From Alkalilimnicola ehrlichii MLHE-1 (GTDB lineage: Bacteria > Pseudomonadota > Gammaproteobacteria > Nitrococcales > Halorhodospiraceae): DNA of 32,000 nt. This document shows positions 3,158 to 31,721 of the stretch, one piece after another (position 1 is the first letter of the stretch; every line of letters starts with the position of its first letter). Where the stretch lies: contig NC_008340.1 of NCBI RefSeq assembly GCF_000014785.1, positions 2,850,001 through 2,882,000 of the forward strand, in the 5' to 3' direction. Made by a program: the position numbers and the translations under genes. The notes beneath the pieces are model-generated. The model did not search any database and was not told the DNA's origin. It saw only the letters and a program-made list of their open reading frames with translations.

Positions 3158-5940
3158 TGACCCGACCGGCGTCCGACACCACCCGGGCCATCACCTTCAC
3201 CCTGGATGGCGAGACGGTCACCGCAGGCCCCGGCGAGACCCTGCTGCAGGTGGCCCGGCGTCAGGGTCAGGCCCTCCCCACCCTCTGCCACCAGCCCGGT
3301 TACCGCCCGGCGGGCAACTGCCGCGCCTGCATGGTGGAGATCGAGGGGGAACGGGTGCTGGCCCCCGCCTGCGTCCGCCAGCCCAGCCCCGGCATGGTGG
3401 TCCACAGCACCAGCGGGCGCGCCGCCCGGGCCCGGCGGATGGTGCTGGAGCTGTTGCAGTCGGACATGCCGGCGGCGGCCCGAACCCCCGACAACGAACT
3501 GCAGCAATGGTGTGACCGGCTGGGGGTGGACGCCCCCCGTTTCCCGGCGCGATCGCAGCCCGCGCCGGACGCCAGCCACCCGGCCATGAGCGTGCGCCTG
3601 GACGCCTGCATCCAGTGCACCCGCTGCCTGCGCGCCTGCCGCGAGGAGCAGGCCAACGACGTCATCGGCATGGCCCATCGCGGGGACCGCACCGCCGTGG
3701 TCTTCGACCTGGCCGACCCCATGGGGCGCTCCTCCTGCGTGGCCTGTGGCGAGTGCGTCCAGGCCTGCCCCACCGGCGCCCTGCTGCCGGCGGGCGACCG
3801 CCCCCCGGAAGCCCCCGACCGCCGGGTGGACTCCGTCTGCCCCTGGTGCGGTGTCGGCTGCCTGCTCACCTACGAATTGAAAGGGGAGCGCATCCTACGC
3901 GTGCAGGGCCGACCGGATGGCCCCGCCAACCGGGGCCGGCTCTGCGTCAAGGGCCGCTTCGGCCAGGACTACGTCCGCCACCCGGGCCGCCTGACCCGAC
4001 CGCTGATCCGCCGCAAGGACGCCCCCAAGACCCTCCCGGTGGATTTCGACCCCGGTGCCCCGCTGCGCTACTTCCGGGAGGCGGACTGGGAGGAAGCCCT
4101 GGACCGGGCCGCCGACGGGCTGCTTCGCATCCGCGACCGCCACGGCCCCCGGGCGCTGGCCGGTTTCGGCTCGGCCAAGGGCTCCAACGAGGAGGCCTAT
4201 CTCTTCCAGAAGCTGGTCCGCACCGGTTTCGGCAGCAACAACGTGGACCACTGCACCCGGCTCTGCCACGCCTCCTCGGTGGCCGCCCTGATGGAGGGGT
4301 TGGGCTCGGGGGCCGTCTCCAACCCGGTGAGCGACGTGGCCCACTGCGAGCTGATCCTGGTCATCGGCGCCAACCCCACGGTCAACCATCCGGTGGCGGC
4401 CACCTTCATGAAGAACGCAGCCCGGGCGGGCAAGCACCTGGTGGTGATGGACCCGCGCCGCACCGAGCTGGCGCGCGAGGCCGACCGGTTCCTGCAGTTC
4501 CGCCCGGACACCGACGTGGCCCTGCTCAACGCCATGATGCACACCATCATCGAGGAGGGGCTCACCGACGAGGGCTTCATCGCCGAGCGCACCGAGGGCT
4601 TCGAGGCCCTGCGCGATAGGGTGATGGCCGACTACAGCCCGGAGGCCATGGCCCCGGTCTGCGGCATCCCGGCCAGGACCATCCGCGAGGTGGCCCGCCA
4701 GTACGCCCGCTCCCGCTCGATGATCTTCTGGGGCATGGGCGTCTCCCAGCACGTGCACGGCACCGACAACGCCCGCTGCCTGATCGCCCTGGCGCTGATG
4801 ACCGGCAACCTGGGCCGGGAGGGCACCGGGCTGCACCCCCTGCGGGGTCAGAACAACGTCCAGGGGGCCTCCGATGCGGGGCTGATCCCCATGTTCTACC
4901 CCAACTACGCCCCGGTGGGCGACCCCGACACCCGGCGCTGGTTCGAGCGTTTCTGGGGCGTGGCGGCCCTCGACCCGGAGCCCGGGCTCACCGTGGTGGA
5001 GGTGGTGGACGCCATCCACGCCGGGGGCGTTCGCGGCATGTACATCCTGGGCGAGAACCCGGCCATGTCCGACCCCGACCTGAACCACGCCCGGGAGGCC
5101 CTGGCCCGGCTGGACCACCTGGTGGTGCAGGACATCTTCCTCACCGAGACCGCCGCCTTCGCCGACGTGGTGCTGCCCGCCTCCGCCTTCCCGGAGAAGA
5201 GCGGCAGCTTCACCAACACCGACCGTCGGGTGCAGATCGGCCGCCAGGCCCTCGACCCGCCCGGCGACGCCCGCCAGGACTGGTGGCTGATCCAGGCCAT
5301 CGCCCGGCGCATGGGCCTGGACTGGCAGTACGACGGCGTGGCCGCAGTGTTCGAGGAGATGCGCCGGGCCATGCCCGCCATCCGCGGCATCACCTGGACA
5401 CGACTGCAACGGGAGGACTCGGTCACCTACCCCTGTGATACGGAGGCGGACCCGGGCCAGCCGGTGCTCTTCCGCGACCGCTTCCCCCGTGGCCGGGGCC
5501 GCTTCGTCCCCGCCCCCTTCAGCAGGGCGGACGAACTGCCCGACCAGGCCTACCCCTGGGTGCTGATCACCGGCCGCCAGCTCGAACACTGGCACACCGG
5601 TGCGATGACCCGGCGCTCCCGGGTACTGGATGCGCTGGAGCCGGCGCCCACCGTCTGCCTCCACCCGGAGGACCTGGCGGCACTGGGGGCGAGCCCCGGC
5701 GAGGCGGTGACCCTGCACTCCCGGCGCGGGCGGTTGACCGCCTACGCCCGGGCGGACGACGGCCTGCAGCGGGGCGAGGTCTTTCTGCCCTTCGCCTACG
5801 TGGAGGCCGCCGCCAACCTGCTCACCAACGCGGCCCTGGACCCCTGGGGCAAGATCCCGGAGTTCAAGTTCTGCGCGGTGCGGATCAGCGCCGGCGGCCA
5901 GGTACCGGCGGCCCGCTTCGGGATTGCGCCGACGGCCTGA
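3157..5940 (+). CDS. fdhF: Formate dehydrogenase alpha subunit (NuoG-like Fe-S N-terminus plus Mo-bisMGD catalytic domain), Cys-type
   Basis: The ATG at 3157 overlaps the upstream stop (TGATG, 3155-3159). The track start at 2974 lies inside the upstream gene. Motifs seen: 2Fe-2S ferredoxin (CHQPGYRPAGNCRAC), two 4Fe-4S motifs (CIQCTRCLRAC and CVACGECVQACP), and a Mo/W-bisMGD 4Fe-4S (CPWCGVGCLL). The long molybdopterin oxidoreductase body contains DHCTRLCHASSV, with Cys at the position that is Sec in selenoenzymes. Confidence 0.92.
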   Translation: MTRPASDTTRAITFTLDGETVTAGPGETLLQVARRQGQALPTLCHQPGYRPAGNCRACMVEIEGERVLAPACVRQPSPGMVVHSTSGRAARARRMVLELLQSDMPAAARTPDNELQQWCDRLGVDAPRFPARSQPAPDASHPAMSVRLDACIQCTRCLRACREEQANDVIGMAHRGDRTAVVFDLADPMGRSSCVACGECVQACPTGALLPAGDRPPEAPDRRVDSVCPWCGVGCLLTYELKGERILRVQGRPDGPANRGRLCVKGRFGQDYVRHPGRLTRPLIRRKDAPKTLPVDFDPGAPLRYFREADWEEALDRAADGLLRIRDRHGPRALAGFGSAKGSNEEAYLFQKLVRTGFGSNNVDHCTRLCHASSVAALMEGLGSGAVSNPVSDVAHCELILVIGANPTVNHPVAATFMKNAARAGKHLVVMDPRRTELAREADRFLQFRPDTDVALLNAMMHTIIEEGLTDEGFIAERTEGFEALRDRVMADYSPEAMAPVCGIPARTIREVARQYARSRSMIFWGMGVSQHVHGTDNARCLIALALMTGNLGREGTGLHPLRGQNNVQGASDAGLIPMFYPNYAPVGDPDTRRWFERFWGVAALDPEPGLTVVEVVDAIHAGGVRGMYILGENPAMSDPDLNHAREALARLDHLVVQDIFLTETAAFADVVLPASAFPEKSGSFTNTDRRVQIGRQALDPPGDARQDWWLIQAIARRMGLDWQYDGVAAVFEEMRRAMPAIRGITWTRLQREDSVTYPCDTEADPGQPVLFRDRFPRGRGRFVPAPFSRADELPDQAYPWVLITGRQLEHWHTGAMTRRSRVLDALEPAPTVCLHPEDLAALGASPGEAVTLHSRRGRLTAYARADDGLQRGEVFLPFAYVEAAANLLTNAALDPWGKIPEFKFCAVRISAGGQVPAARFGIAPTA

Positions 5941-9071: not shown

Positions 9072-9148
9072 TGGTGGGCCCGGCAGGACTTGAACCTGCG
9101 ACCAAGCGATTATGAGTCGCCTGCTCTGACCAACTGAGCTACAGGCCC
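9072..9148 (-). tRNA. tRNA with CAU anticodon, most likely tRNA-Ile2 (lysidine-modified) rather than elongator Met
   Basis: The reverse complement is GGGCCTGTAGCTCAGTTGGTCAGAGCAGGCGACTCATAATCGCTTGGTCGCAGGTTCAAGTCCTGCCGGGCCCACCA. It folds as a cloverleaf with an encoded CCA. As I recall, the anticodon arm and variable region GGCGACTCATAATCGCTTGGTCGC match E. coli ileX. The position just downstream of rpoD also parallels E. coli. Confidence 0.9.
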
Positions 9149-15553: not shown

Positions 15554-15755
15554 GCCGGCCTGCCGTGCCGGGGCGGGTGGATCGCTGGGGCGACTTATGC
15601 GCACCGAGCAACGCAGCAAAAAGTCGGAAAAAAGGCGCGCCTGTCCGAGCGAAGCGAGTTCGCGCCGCCGACTTTTTGTGAGTAGCGCAGGGCACCCCGA
15701 AGGGGTGCGCATTTGGAGCCCCAGCGATCCACCCGCCCCGGCACGGCAGGCCGGC
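15554..15755 (+). repeat. Nested-palindrome intergenic element, copy 1 (37-bp perfect outer arms at 15554-15590 and 15719-15755)
   Basis: GCCGGCCTGCCGTGCCGGGGCGGGTGGATCGCTGGGG | CGACTTATGCGCACCGAGCAACGCAGC | AAAAAGTCGG | AAAAAAGGCGCGCCTGTCCGAGCGAAGCGAGTTCGCGCCG | CCGACTTTTT | GTGAGTAGCGCAGGGCACCCCGAAGGGGTGCGCATTTGGAG | exact reverse complement of the first arm. It lies between the divergent plsY and folB genes. Confidence 0.9.
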
Positions 15756-15863
15756 ACCCCGAAGGGGTGCACAATAACGGGACGCTAGCAAACGTGGTCC
15801 GCACGATTTGGCGCACTAACCGCAACTCGCTATAGTGCCCGCTTTGCACCACCCGGAGCCGTC

Positions 15864-17927: not shown

Positions 17928-18123
17928 GGCGGTGGGCCGACGGGGCCCCATCCGCCAGGGCGACTTTTGCGCACCGAGCATCGCAGCTTTCAGGGGGAAA
18001 AAAGCGCGCGCCTGTCCGAGCGAAGCGAGTTCGCGCGCTCCCCCTGAAAGCGAGAAGCACAGGGGACCCCGAAGGGGTGCGCAATCGGAGCCCAGGCGGA
18101 TGGGGCCCCGTCGGCCCACCGCC
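17928..18123 (+). repeat. Nested-palindrome intergenic element, copy 2 (most divergent; arms 17928-17960 and 18091-18123 with one A:A mismatch)
   Basis: GGCGGTGGGCCGACGGGGCCCCATCCGCCAGGG | CGACTTTTGCGCACCGAGCATCGCAGC | TTTCAGGGGG | AAAAAAGCGCGCGCCTGTCCGAGCGAAGCGAGTTCGCGCGCT | CCCCCTGAAA | GCGAGAAGCACAGGGGACCCCGAAGGGGTGCGCAATCGGAG | reverse-complement arm. It starts 15 nt after the midA-like stop. Confidence 0.9.
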
Positions 18124-18199
18124 CCAAGTTGCACAACCCCCCTATCAAGCCTATAGATAGGAGCAGGCGCACCAACACACCCGACGGGGGAGAACCGCA

Positions 18200-18490
18200 A
18201 TGGCCTGGCAGAACCCACCGGAGGTCGGTGCCTGGTACATGGACCACCTGGGCCGTACCTTCGAGGTCGTCGCCTCGGACGAACAAGACGAAACCGTCGA
18301 GATCCAATACATGGACGGCGACGTGGAGGAACTGGACCTGGAGACCTGGGCCGAATTCCGCAAGGAGCGCGTGGAACCACCGGAGGACTGGGTCGCCTCG
18401 ATGGACATGGACCCCAACCTGGAAGGCTGGAACCACCTGCACGGTGACCCGGTTCAACAGGCCCTGGATACCCTGGAACGCCAGGAGTGA
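18200..18490 (+). CDS. Hypothetical small acidic protein (96 aa)
   Basis: The ATG at 18200 follows GGGGGAG. Codon usage is GC3-rich like its neighbours. The gene is tightly packed, ending 9 nt before nfi. I recognise no family. Confidence 0.55.
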   Translation: MAWQNPPEVGAWYMDHLGRTFEVVASDEQDETVEIQYMDGDVEELDLETWAEFRKERVEPPEDWVASMDMDPNLEGWNHLHGDPVQQALDTLERQE

Positions 18491-25306: not shown

Positions 25307-25376
25307 GTCGCACGGTTTGGTCACGGGATGCTGCGCTTTGGCGGAAGCGAGATCGGGTAATTGGGCTTGAGTGATC

Positions 25377-25498
25377 GGCTCGTTGGCCGGCTGCGATGAG
25401 GCTCGTTGGGCGGGTGCGGTCTGTTGGTTGGGCGACTGCGATCAGGCTCGTTGGGTGGAGCGGTCTGTTGGTTGGGCGACTGCGATGGGGCTCAGGAC
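25377..25498. repeat. Degenerate ~45-bp tandem repeat (about 2.7 units)
   Basis: Units start at 25377 (partial), 25400, 25445 and 25489. Unit sequence: GGCTCGTTGGG(C/T)GG(G/A)(T)GCGGTCTGTTGGTTGGGCGACTGCGAT(C/G)(A/G). The last unit runs into the left arm of the adjacent palindrome. Confidence 0.85.
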
Positions 25499-25606
25499 GG
25501 GGTGCGGCGGTGGTTCGGGTGCGAATACGCCGTGAACCCATCCATGGGGGCTCGTAGGCAGCATCCCTGCTGCCTACGATTCGCACCCGAACCACCGCCG
25601 CACCCC
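25499..25606. repeat. Palindromic element: 28-bp perfect inverted repeat enclosing a GTAG-hairpin
   Basis: The left arm GGGGTGCGGCGGTGGTTCGGGTGCGAAT (25499-25526) is the exact reverse complement of 25579-25606. The inner hairpin has 10-bp arms, CGTAGGCAGC/GCTGCCTACG (25553-25578). Confidence 0.9.
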
Positions 25607-27975: not shown

Positions 27976-28186
27976 TCGAGTGTCGGGCGGCCGGGCGGGG
28001 GATCGTCCGCTGGGGCTCCAAATGCGCACCCCCTTCGGGGGTTCCCTGCGCTACTCGGGAAAAATCGGCGCGCGTGAACTCGCTTCGCTCGAACAGGCAC
28101 GCGCTTTTCCCGATTTTTCCCTGCGTTGCTCGGTGCGCATAAGTCGCCCCAGCGGACGATCCCCCGCCCGGCCGCCCGACACTCGA
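27976..28186 (-). repeat. Nested-palindrome intergenic element, copy 3 (inverted orientation; 40-bp perfect arms at 27976-28015 and 28147-28186)
   Basis: The reverse complement reads TCGAGTGTCGGGCGGCCGGGCGGGGGATCGTCCGCTGGGG | CGACTTATGCGCACCGAGCAACGCAGG | GAAAAATCGG | GAAAAGCGCGTGCCTGTTCGAGCGAAGCGAGTTCACGCGCG | CCGATTTTTC | CCGAGTAGCGCAGGGAACCCCCGAAGGGGGTGCGCATTTGGAG | reverse-complement arm. Confidence 0.9.
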
Positions 28187-30954: not shown

Positions 30955-31431
30955 TCAGCCCGCCGGGTCCTGCTCGGCCAGGGCGATAATATGCGCCCAG
31001 TGATCCGGCTCCACCGGCATGACCGACAGCCGGTTCCCCCGGGCCAGCAGCTTCATCCCCTCCAACTGCGGTTGGCGTTTGAGTTCGTGCAGGGTCACCT
31101 TGCGCGGCAGTATCGCCTTGAATTTCACGTCCACCAGGTACCAGCGCGGCTTCTCCGGGTCGCTCTTGGGGTCGTAGTGCTTGTCATCGGGGTCGAACTG
31201 GGTGGGGTCGGGGTAGCCCTCGCGCACGATCTCGACGATGCCGACAATACCCGGCGGCTTGGTGTTGGAATGGTAGAAGAAGGCCAGGTCGCCGACCTTC
31301 ATCTGGTCGCGCATCATGTTGCGCGCCTGGTAGTTGCGCACGCCGTCCCAGGGTTCGATCTGGTCCGGGCGCTGCTTCAGGTCCTCGATGCCGAACTCGT
31401 CCGGCTCCGACTTCATCAGCCAGTAGTTCAT
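30955..31431 (-). CDS. EVE (PUA-like) domain protein
   Basis: The ATG at 31431 has GGGGAG upstream. MNYWLMKSEPDEFGIEDLKQ..WDGVRNYQARNMMRDQMKVGDLAFFYHSN.. is the canonical EVE-domain N-terminus. The track start at 31521 adds 30 non-homologous residues. Confidence 0.88.
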   Translation of the reverse strand: MNYWLMKSEPDEFGIEDLKQRPDQIEPWDGVRNYQARNMMRDQMKVGDLAFFYHSNTKPPGIVGIVEIVREGYPDPTQFDPDDKHYDPKSDPEKPRWYLVDVKFKAILPRKVTLHELKRQPQLEGMKLLARGNRLSVMPVEPDHWAHIIALAEQDPAG

Positions 31432-31507
31432 GCACTCCCCCGGTTGCAAGCCAATAATCGGCGCCAGTTTTGCACAGCGCGACGGGGTTTGTCTTATCGG
31501 CCCGGGC

Positions 31508-31721
31508 GGCTGTTGGGACATGCCGGGGAGGGGCGGAGATCGGGATGGGGCGACTTATGCGCACCGAGCAACGCAGCAAAAGAGCGGAAAAAAGGCGCGC
31601 CTGTCCGAGCGAAGCGAGTTCGCGCCGCCGCTCTTTTGCGAGTAGCGCAGGGGACCCCGAAGGGGTGCGCATTCGGAGCCCCATCCCGATCTCCGCCCCT
31701 CCCCGGCATGTCCCAACAGCC
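31508..31721 (+). repeat. Nested-palindrome intergenic element, copy 4 (43-bp perfect arms at 31508-31550 and 31679-31721)
   Basis: GGCTGTTGGGACATGCCGGGGAGGGGCGGAGATCGGGATGGGG | CGACTTATGCGCACCGAGCAACGCAGC | AAAAGAGCGG | AAAAAAGGCGCGCCTGTCCGAGCGAAGCGAGTTCGCGCCG | CCGCTCTTTT | GCGAGTAGCGCAGGGGACCCCGAAGGGGTGCGCATTCGGAG | exact reverse-complement arm. Confidence 0.9.

Follow-up and report, generated by a model that had tools for sequence, protein, structure and literature searches.

A palindromic intergenic repeat of Alkalilimnicola ehrlichii MLHE-1 with a near-invariant 19-nt tip found across bacterial phyla

The known repetitive extragenic palindromic (REP) sequences, REPINs and MITEs (miniature inverted-repeat transposable elements) of bacteria are lineage-specific, with one sequence per genus and a tie to their own enzyme. 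REP sequences and the REP-associated tyrosine transposases (RAYTs) form pairs that co-evolve and differ between genera (PMC2817692; PMC8266576). Here we describe a palindromic intergenic repeat that occurs in four copies in a 32,000-nt stretch of the Alkalilimnicola ehrlichii MLHE-1 genome (RefSeq assembly GCF_000014785.1, contig NC_008340.1, positions 2,850,001 to 2,882,000; the whole stretch is referred to as the window and supplies the coordinates used below). Each copy is a nested hairpin with an outer stem, P1, and inner helices P2 to P5. The repeat is unusual for its near-invariant 19-nt tip, since one and the same tip is met from Firmicutes to Proteobacteria to Saccharibacteria.

The element shares with REP sequences, and with the BIMEs (bacterial interspersed mosaic elements) and REPINs, the habit of intergenic multi-copy hairpins without an adjacent gene, present as singletons, head-to-head dimers and mosaics. 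Pairing in Stenotrophomonas REPs is kept by complementary changes, as in the present element (PMC2817692), and GCGNAGC tips are found in enterobacterial REPs (PMC2817692, Table 1). The tip, TGTYY-GA-[GC GNA GC]-GA, resembles the Pseudomonas REP TGTGG-GA-[GCGGGC..GCCCGC]-GA and follows, like the REPs of Pseudomonas and Xanthomonas, the order head-GA-[palindrome]-GA. Its head is TGTYY, not GTAG; a GTAG does stand ahead of the small hairpin P5, as GAGTAGCGCAGG, in three of the four window copies and in both copies from a sister species, with GAAG in copy 2 and GCAG, GGAG or GACG in other lineages. REPs, however, measure 20-40 nt, whereas the present element runs from ~110 to >300 nt and has only its P5 sub-unit and tip mini-hairpin in the REP size range. 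The conserved part is the loop here and the 5' head plus stem in REPs, and among the neighbouring open reading frames (ORFs) no RAYT gene was found beside any copy. The element fails REP membership on size, on the place of the conserved part and, above all, on its lack of lineage specificity; REP/RAYT is the nearest working model.

Bacterial MITEs (Correia/NEMIS, ERIC, RPE) are likewise short and non-coding, form hairpins and move in trans, and they show clonal bursts and presence/absence differences, but they keep the terminal inverted repeats of a parent insertion sequence (IS) and direct target duplications. The present element has copy-specific termini, no visible duplication and no known parent IS, and its conserved part lies in the centre; conserved terminal repeats were not found, the outer 8-14 bp of P1 differing in each window-lineage copy that extends past the GCCGGGG core. 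The ssoA single-strand origins of rolling-circle plasmids and the G4/phiX-type single-strand initiation signals offer another parallel in folded single-stranded DNA (ssDNA) with variable paired stems, conserved unpaired motifs in the terminal loop for host enzymes and strand specificity. They are plasmid- or phage-borne at one or two per replicon, whereas the present element is chromosomal and oriented both ways, with about one copy per 8 kb of the window. Integron attC sites are also recognised as a folded single strand of conserved structure and free sequence, but they keep R and L boxes at the base and extrahelical bases, have a variable loop and lie in cassette arrays beside an integrase gene. 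No attC boxes (RYYYAAC ... GTTRRRY) were found in the four window copies, which have a conserved loop and are dispersed between housekeeping genes. Finally, arm-to-arm conversion of large palindromes, or template-switch correction of quasi-palindromes, gives arms that diverge between copies and are identical within them, along with inversion of the spacer, as is seen here. These are generic DNA processes, and they leave the invariant tip and the cross-phylum spread unexplained.

A near-invariant tip on copy-specific, covarying stems

The pattern CCTGTYCGAGCGAAGCGAGTT occurs exactly four times in the window, at 15640-15660 (+), 18011-18031 (+), 28077-28097 (-) and 31600-31620 (+), where 100 shuffles lead one to expect none. 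These sites lie in four copies of 196-214 nt that can be aligned over a common core, and they agree with the coordinates at which the first-pass annotation had placed four intergenic elements of ~200 bp. Folding reproduced for all four copies the nested hairpin proposed there, with five helices and a predicted minimum free energy of -152 to -168 kcal/mol against about -91 kcal/mol for shuffles (z -12.6 to -17.0). The three P1 arms that had been called mismatch-free were confirmed as perfect stems of 38 bp in copy 1, 41 bp in copy 3 and 44 bp in copy 4, copy 2 being the exception with 29+4 bp around one A·A mismatch. P2, P3, P4 and P5 vary from copy to copy and each copy retains its own pairing, as had been claimed and as can be read in every copy. 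Two details need refinement. P2 (ATGCGCACC/GGTGCGCAT) and P5 (ACCCC-GAA-GGGGT) have two bases in common and hence compete, and the supposed junction strands GAGCAACGCAG and GAGTAGCGCAG pair in part (GC.AC with GU.GC), where copy 2 has exchanged A-U for U-A in a compensated manner.

The window lineage has the inner segment of P1, (T)GCCGGGG..GGGG, in common, and the outer 0, 8, 12, 13 or 14 bp pair perfectly although no two copies share them. Insertion into a host hairpin, inverted duplication of the target, or fast copying from arm to arm could each account for this. All copies in the window are singletons, two in sense and one in antisense orientation to the genes and one between divergent genes, and neither the covariance-model search nor blastn found further copies in the window.

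Beyond this genome, the apical motif TGTYYGAGCGNAGCGAGTT caps copy-specific hairpins in Firmicutes, Bacteroidota, Proteobacteria, Saccharibacteria, Elusimicrobia, Nitrospirae and further phyla, so that the description of unpaired parts as invariant and stems as variable but complementary holds far outside the strain in which it was made. An exact 19-mer scan with TGTYCGAGCGAAGCGAGTT over one genome per species (596 Gb) gave at least 120 loci, against ~9 expected by chance on a uniform-composition estimate. Among the matches listed, with taxa taken from the record titles, are Firmicutes (Peptoniphilus, Clostridium, Lachnospiraceae, Ruminococcus, Veillonellaceae, Halanaerobiales, Lacticaseibacillus), Bacteroidota (Tannerella, Proteiniphilum, Rikenellaceae), alpha-, beta-, gamma- and delta-proteobacteria, Nitrospirae, Acidobacteria, Gemmatimonadota, Elusimicrobia, Saccharibacteria and Bipolaricaulota. 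The motif forms a hairpin loop in 110 of the 124 unique contexts among these matches, on a stem that is copy-specific, and chance alone would give roughly as many contexts as the 14 that lack a hairpin. Stem composition tracks the host, being AT-rich in Peptoniphilus and GC-rich in Thauera, and stem length across the family ranges from ~20 to ~120 predicted pairs. Cultured isolates with the hairpin-capping motif include Peptoniphilus, Tannerella, Marinobacter, Thauera, Stenotrophomonas and Halorhodospira, as well as Ralstonia.

When up to four mismatches were allowed at the same loci, loop variation was confined to positions 4 and 5 (C/T), 10 (once) and 11 (A/C), which defines a constant unit, N-TGTYY-GA-GC-GNA-GC-GA-G-TT. 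It consists of one or two free bases, TGTYY, the 13-nt mini-hairpin C-GA-GC-GNA-GC-GA-G and TT, and a few purine-rich unpaired motifs of the GNAGCG type recur alongside it. None of 5,426 E. coli genomes contains the motif, which is present in 127 Ralstonia megaplasmid records. In the plasmid collection it was found solely on megaplasmid-sized replicons, and the whole of copy 1 used as query gave no match there. One of the 120 listed metagenome matches to the pattern GCGCACCGAGCANCGCAG was a true copy.

A covariance model of six window-lineage copies with a hand-set structure, the approach that the first-pass annotation had suggested, matched 54 copies from 40 sources among gamma-, beta- and delta-proteobacteria. 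Both-sided changes were seen in all 38 modelled pairs; paired cells amounted to 91.6%, compared with 55% after shuffling and ~42% for slid partners, and the covariation score was 0.62 against 0.14 for shuffled and 0.05-0.09 for slid controls. Fitting the 54-copy alignment to the model favours the structure, but the slid controls and the perfect folds of individual copies make the helices secure despite this. A DNA hairpin should show such covariation just as well. On the motif strand G.T exceeds A.C mismatches by 63:25 (86:56 in the symmetric count), and a purine-rich 5' arm is found in 51 of 61 cases (51 vs 10). Together with the covariation, these biases indicate that the motif-bearing strand matters as a single strand. 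Two close orthologues, L114 and L090 (the L numbers are our handles for loci), are 93% identical and differ by single-sided changes, G.U intermediates and two double changes of the transition type.

Clonal, near-identical sets with shared arms, like those of a recently active MITE, were found in Polaromonas BC.025, Clostridium sp. W2P44.032 and Bacillota OH_PDB_83. The variation of arms that had been set against the conserved arms of MITEs and REPINs thus describes the window but not the family as a general rule.

Several other contexts of the tip deserve mention. Giant hairpins with ~95-120 predicted pairs per arm, ~250-320 nt in length and with the same 19-nt tip, occur at L114, L036, L090, L060 and L102. 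L114, from an Eisenbergiella metagenome-assembled genome (MAG), holds three of them on one 8-kb contig (7626-7944, 7247-7565 and 5313-5631), with unrelated arms and ~110-120 predicted pairs; near-perfect palindromes of this length around a 19-nt spacer should be unstable. The 5' arms of L013 (Saccharibacteria, ~1120-1150) and L001 (Elusimicrobiales, ~5590-5640) both contain TTTTGCAGGCCTTT besides the tip, which may point to entire elements having been transferred horizontally or to an additional conserved motif in the arm. In Clostridium MAGs (L057, 243-400; L109, 5266-5406; L091) two units of 72-78 nt stand in tandem, each combining the motif with a second hairpin, ACAGAATTT..AAATTCTGT, unlike the context of a single long hairpin. 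In Ruminococcus, Clostridiales and Eubacterium MAGs (L027, L045, L085, L097, L012) the motif is followed by ACCG(A/C)AA and simple-sequence repeats, e.g. of aattcct or ccattct units, just upstream of the ribosome-binding site. At L045, complementary simple repeats upstream could pair with these, although RNAfold placed no motif hairpin there.

Mobility and exchange between arms

By its gor protein the source of the window is a gammaproteobacterium of the Ectothiorhodospiraceae type; the sister species mentioned above has a gor protein identity of 92%, compared with 64-68% for the best named matches, in Alkalilimnicola and Halorhodospira. Where copies 2, 3 and 4 would lie, its syntenic contigs have gaps of 109, 97 and 81 nt, against 286, 331 and ~290 nt in the window, and the shorter gaps indicate that the element is absent from these three sites. 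The presence/absence comparison with a relative that the first-pass annotation had called for thus left three of the four sites empty. The sister species holds copies elsewhere (L137 and L188, loop TGTCTGAG...). In several MAGs identical copies stand at contig ends. The 3381-nt Logan contig SRR32708590_381 (L135) carries an identical gor gene and stops ~30 nt past it, just within copy 3, which suggests that the element breaks assemblies. Head-to-head (-,+) dimers are frequent in beta-proteobacteria (Polaromonas, Ralstonia and other loci), and mosaics with other palindromic units, termed Y, c and d, occur in many beta-, gamma- and delta-proteobacteria. The family is probably non-autonomous and mobile.

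No gene accompanies the element. An all-against-all comparison of 2,585 neighbouring ORFs returned only generic families (ABC transporters, histidine kinases, HSP20, LeuRS, GrpE), which cluster because universal proteins alone are detectable across phyla. Pfam annotation of the 139 nearest ORFs showed no enrichment, the commonest family being MFS_1 with four members, and no transposase family was among the 25 commonest. On these grounds an adjacent mobilising gene was rejected. No IS was found near the copies among the 139 neighbouring ORFs, and the 32-kb window contains no rayt gene. Neighbours that were checked individually are housekeeping genes, e.g. frr/holB, dnaK/rsmE and mraZ/mraW.

The richest record of rearrangement comes from Ralstonia, where two head-to-head units of 192-193 nt each lie on the megaplasmid between glgB and glgX. 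Each unit consists, in order, of the motif-bearing hairpin E, an invariant segment Y (CCTTTCTTTG), an AT-rich hairpin c and a GC hairpin d, and the length of 192-193 nt is constant in 16 Ralstonia copies. Both units are present in distant phylotypes across the species complex, with flanks 88-90% identical, and are therefore old at this site. The whole forms a nested 'Russian-doll' palindrome with a 19-bp outer stem followed by d, c, Y and E. In strains SL3755 and YC40-M the units have been lost by stepwise deletions between arm repeats, and unit d is tandemly duplicated in CQPS-1 and SL2064. R. syzygii LLRS-1 (L268) and SL2064 (L271) differ by an exact 45-nt inversion of the tip (bulge, P4 and loop) with arms unchanged. 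Inversion of the whole 328-nt head-to-head pair between L262 and L268/L269/L271 is probable as judged by sequence comparison, the [E'-spacer-E] segment having a reverse-complement identity of 0.83-0.88 against a forward identity of 0.77-0.82 between phylotype groups. Ten haplotypes show many stem differences and no mismatches in stems a, b and P4; by inspection, all differences between GMI1000_R and EP1_R are compensated pairs, and some haplotypes resemble mosaics of the left and right copies. These inversions, deletions and compensated haplotypes show that recombination or template switching between arms and inverted copies occurs, a process that is by itself sufficient to keep arms complementary, with no RNA needed.

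A conserved 3' module after the motif hairpin, consisting of the polypyrimidine Y, hairpin c and GC hairpin d, is seen at 1180-1660 of L262 (GMI1000 megaplasmid) and likewise in L010, L016, L024, L032, L038, L058, L079, L104, L105 and L111 from beta-, gamma- and delta-proteobacteria. Hairpin c has the form CTTTCTTTGG-loop-CAAAGAAAG, its 5' arm repeating Y, and both Y and c are almost invariant in the 16 Ralstonia units. A pyrimidine-purine-pyrimidine triplex, or alternative pairings, could in principle arise among Y, the 5' arm of c and the mirror-symmetric purine arm.

The window copies and their surroundings

The window is a housekeeping region with rpoD, dnaG, tsaD, plsY, folB, folK, nfi, ubiD, gor and other genes, and all four copies are intergenic. 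Copy 1 (15554..15755, +), with a covariance-model score of 165 bits, lies between plsY (-) and folB (+). Its P1 arms occupy 15554-15591 and 15718-15755, followed inwards by an internal loop (15592-15596 / 15713-15717), P2 (15597-15605 / 15704-15712), P3 (15617-15627 / 15668-15678), an A-rich bulge (15628-15633) and P4 (15634-15639 / 15661-15666), with P5 at 15693-15707. The apical loop (15640..15660, +) reads CC-TGTCCGAGCGAAGCGAGTT and contains the mini-hairpin GCGAAGC flanked by GA/GA. A solo small hairpin of the P5 type, GGCACCCCGAAGGGGTGCACA (15753..15775, +; family D7), abuts copy 1 and has 21/23 identity to the P5 plus P2-3' segment within it; from its sequence it may be an independent REP-like unit.

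Copy 2 (17928..18123, +; 161 bits; apical loop 18011..18031, +) is located between a Methyltransf_28 gene and a DUF6763 gene, 14 nt past the stop codon of the former and 5 nt ahead of the conserved -35-like TTGCAC of the latter. Copy 3 (27976..28186, -; 159 bits) begins one base past the gor stop codon, and its apical loop (28077..28097, -) is a TGTTC variant. Copy 4 (31508..31721, +; 169 bits; apical loop 31600..31620, +) has an EVE-domain gene on one side and a 5-FTHF cyclo-ligase gene on the other and is antisense to both. Promoter-like blocks conserved in the sister species were noted upstream of the DUF6763 gene at 18124-18200 (AGTTGCACAA..CCCCTATC..GCCTATAGAT) and upstream of the EVE gene at 31400-31500 (CTGTGCAAAAC; compare L137, 20797-20907). 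Their position 5-40 nt from the element ends indicates insertions between stop codons and promoters that disrupted neither.

The window also holds a second nested palindrome that is unrelated to the main element, preceded at 25361-25494 by three tandem units of 44-45 nt. It has a perfect 28-bp outer stem (25499-25526 / 25579-25606) with a G-rich 5' arm, and its interior comprises a 26-nt unpaired stretch and a perfect hairpin, CGTAGGCAGC-atccct-GCTGCCTACG, of the GTAG type and REP-like. The layout, an outer stem with a small hairpin on the 3' side, is that of the main element. A tRNA-Met (CAT) gene is found immediately downstream of rpoD at 9072-9148 (-).

The first-pass annotation could not match the element to a named family, and our searches gave no name either. 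Rfam 15 at its gathering score placed no family on the window copies or on 33 diverse loci, and at E<=10 it returned only microRNA-precursor-like noise on both strands. Full-text literature searches with loop and module sequences, and keyword searches for REP, stem-loop families and Ralstonia repeats, found no description or name; the lone full-text match to a 13-mer was an unrelated cell-biology paper, and surveys of REP and stem-loop sequences describe nothing alike. Several specific identities were tried and rejected. A protein-coding loop was considered, as positions 5 and 11 are third-codon positions of two frames (NSLRSD or SERSE), but there is no open frame and stops follow within a few codons in many copies. 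The other strand of P2, GGTGCGCATAA, equals the E. coli XerC arm, but copy 2 and L188 differ, there is no XerD arm and the copies are dispersed, so that the match to an Xer/dif site is treated as a coincidence. Inspection of the tip as a K-turn, a T-loop or a mimic of the tRNA(Asp/Asn) anticodon loop found the geometry or key positions unfit. As for a phage origin, 14 IMG/VR contigs carry a shorter 17-nt motif, GTYCGAGCGAAGCGAGT, with a complementary short stem in at most one or two, and the sole candidate for a copy in a cultured phage is a chance match in a coding region.

Folded DNA, structured RNA and the role of the tip

We interpret these repeats as probably a widespread mobile family of hairpin-forming intergenic elements, in kind like REP/BIME/REPIN and MITE, that acts at the DNA level as a folded single strand. 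The following features favour DNA over RNA: the repeat behaviour, the unbiased orientation, the lack of promoter or terminator signals, the long duplexes and the GNA triloops. Orientation to flanking genes, on crude ORF calls, is 16 sense to 16 antisense, and the window copies have no promoter-like sites directed into them, no terminator-like sites at their ends and no T-run after the hairpins. Perfect stems of 40 to >120 bp occur in the family, and perfect duplexes of 40-120 bp would, as RNA, be RNase III substrates. C-GNA-G triloops close 16 of 249 small element hairpins against 34 of 4829 in the background, a nine-fold enrichment, while for GNRA tetraloops the small side hairpins show no such excess. 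Triloops of the GNA type closed by C:G, GCGAAGC especially, form unusually stable DNA mini-hairpins. Where the first-pass annotation had listed structured RNA, ssDNA under selection and copying between arms as options, the evidence leans to the DNA options.

More specifically, our leading though still tentative proposal, to which we give somewhat less than an even chance, is a non-autonomous REP/MITE-like element acting as folded ssDNA, with the tip as a putative recognition site for a factor supplied in trans. The tip, perhaps together with the unpaired GNAGCG-type motifs, would be the cis binding or cleavage site of a factor encoded elsewhere in the genome, most likely an HUH/Y1-type ssDNA nuclease such as RAYT, or alternatively a replication or priming protein. 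The active form would be folded ssDNA. The stems would merely present the tip on a hairpin and hence be free in sequence, and their pairing would be maintained in two ways. Copying or recombination between arms, either template switching at quasi-palindromes or arm-to-arm conversion, may restore complementarity, and this same process would invert the tip; the inversion is seen at the Ralstonia locus, and conversion would be its presumed counterpart. In addition, well-paired copies alone may stay active or be retained.

Several points weigh against this proposal. No target-site duplication or precise insertion boundary could be defined at the empty sites, where the intergenic DNA of the sister species is too diverged, and by eye the four window copies share no flank repeat. 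No trans-acting protein was found among the neighbouring regions of the copies. A tip of 19 nt that hardly varies between phyla sets the element apart from known REP/RAYT pairs. Because the G.T/A.C and composition tests draw on related copies, their P values are inflated; the orientation test relies on crude ORF calls, with 60 matches 'inside' spurious ORFs; and the GNA triloops are taken as a sign of DNA on the strength of published oligonucleotide thermodynamics. Covariation, the G.U excess and the conserved unpaired motifs fit a protein-binding structured RNA equally well.

Such an RNA is the first of the alternatives to be weighed. It would be a multi-copy structured non-coding RNA whose tip and GNAGCG-type motifs bind or sequester a conserved protein or RNA, whose stems are compensatory and which spreads like the 'cuckoo' small RNAs. 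It would account for the covariation of all 38 pairs, for the excess of G.U over A.C on the motif strand, for the changes between L114 and L090, which fit stepwise compensation, for the invariance of the unpaired tip (and of Y in Ralstonia) and for the fixed length of the 16 Ralstonia units. We nevertheless consider it unlikely, because no Rfam family was found and the sub-threshold matches are microRNA-precursor-like on both strands, orientation to neighbouring genes is unbiased, the window copies are without promoter-like or terminator-like sites, the perfect 40-120 bp duplexes would be RNase III substrates and the side hairpins have GNA triloops rather than GNRA or UNCG tetraloops. Inversion of the tip with flanks unchanged also indicates that loop orientation within the unit is not fixed, and the assembly breaks and the gain or loss between sister species are repeat-like. 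A DNA structural site that now serves the host and derives from a formerly selfish repeat could be an ssoA or G4/phiX-type priming signal, a gyrase or nucleoid binding site, or a bidirectional insulator as proposed for REP/BIME. It would suit copies placed in short housekeeping intergenic gaps, right after stop codons and right before promoters, as well as the retention of two Ralstonia copies at one site throughout the species complex, and the cross-phylum loop invariance suggests a conserved partner in the core machinery. GCGAAGC is an exceptionally stable DNA mini-hairpin reported in phage replication origins, ssoA origins have stems that vary and a loop with the conserved hexamer TAGCGT/A, and Firmicute copies contain TAGCGA; a presumed likeness to CS-6 of ssoA and to PriA-site and Chi-like GAAGCG motifs also suggests the role. 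It is a live alternative that we consider unlikely, as absence from the 5,426 E. coli genomes and the three empty sister sites make the element dispensable at any given site, no T-run follows the hairpins, the clonal bursts in some genomes look selfish and the resemblances to priming signals are presumed ones.

Two further readings concern the origin of the arms and the reach of the tip. The outer stems may not be inherited at all, the element inserting into the tips of pre-existing host hairpins or duplicating its target in inverted form, so that palindromes grow from the centre outwards. This would explain why the inner P1 is shared and the outer 0, 8, 12, 13 or 14 bp are copy-unique and paired, and why the Eisenbergiella arms are unrelated around the same tip, and it would fit the Ralstonia 'Russian-doll' palindrome and the second, unrelated nested palindrome at 25499-25606 of the window. 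We regard it as very unlikely: no empty site with the predicted simple hairpin was recovered, the full structure is found in distant phylotypes, so that the short Ralstonia variants are deletions of derived origin, and clonal families elsewhere carry whole arms. A bolder form of the folded-ssDNA proposal would have pan-bacterial selfish DNA hairpins with a universal 19-nt tip 'address', read as folded ssDNA by a conserved factor so far linked to no repeat, with arms continually rewritten from one another; candidate readers are a widely transferred HUH-type nuclease or a core replication or priming enzyme. In this full form it seems improbable to us.

A near-invariant tip kept in many bacterial phyla amid freely changing paired stems points to a conserved recognition partner. 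The 19-nt tip is a sequence handle by which this partner can be traced, by phyletic profiling or pull-down, and at the Ralstonia locus inversions, conversions and deletions form a natural series in which the maintenance of palindromes can be studied. Short-read assemblies are broken by the elements, and copies between housekeeping stop codons and promoters may affect annotation and expression. If the tip is indeed a universal 'address', the family would represent a new, sequence-defined way for a repeat to persist and to move between phyla.

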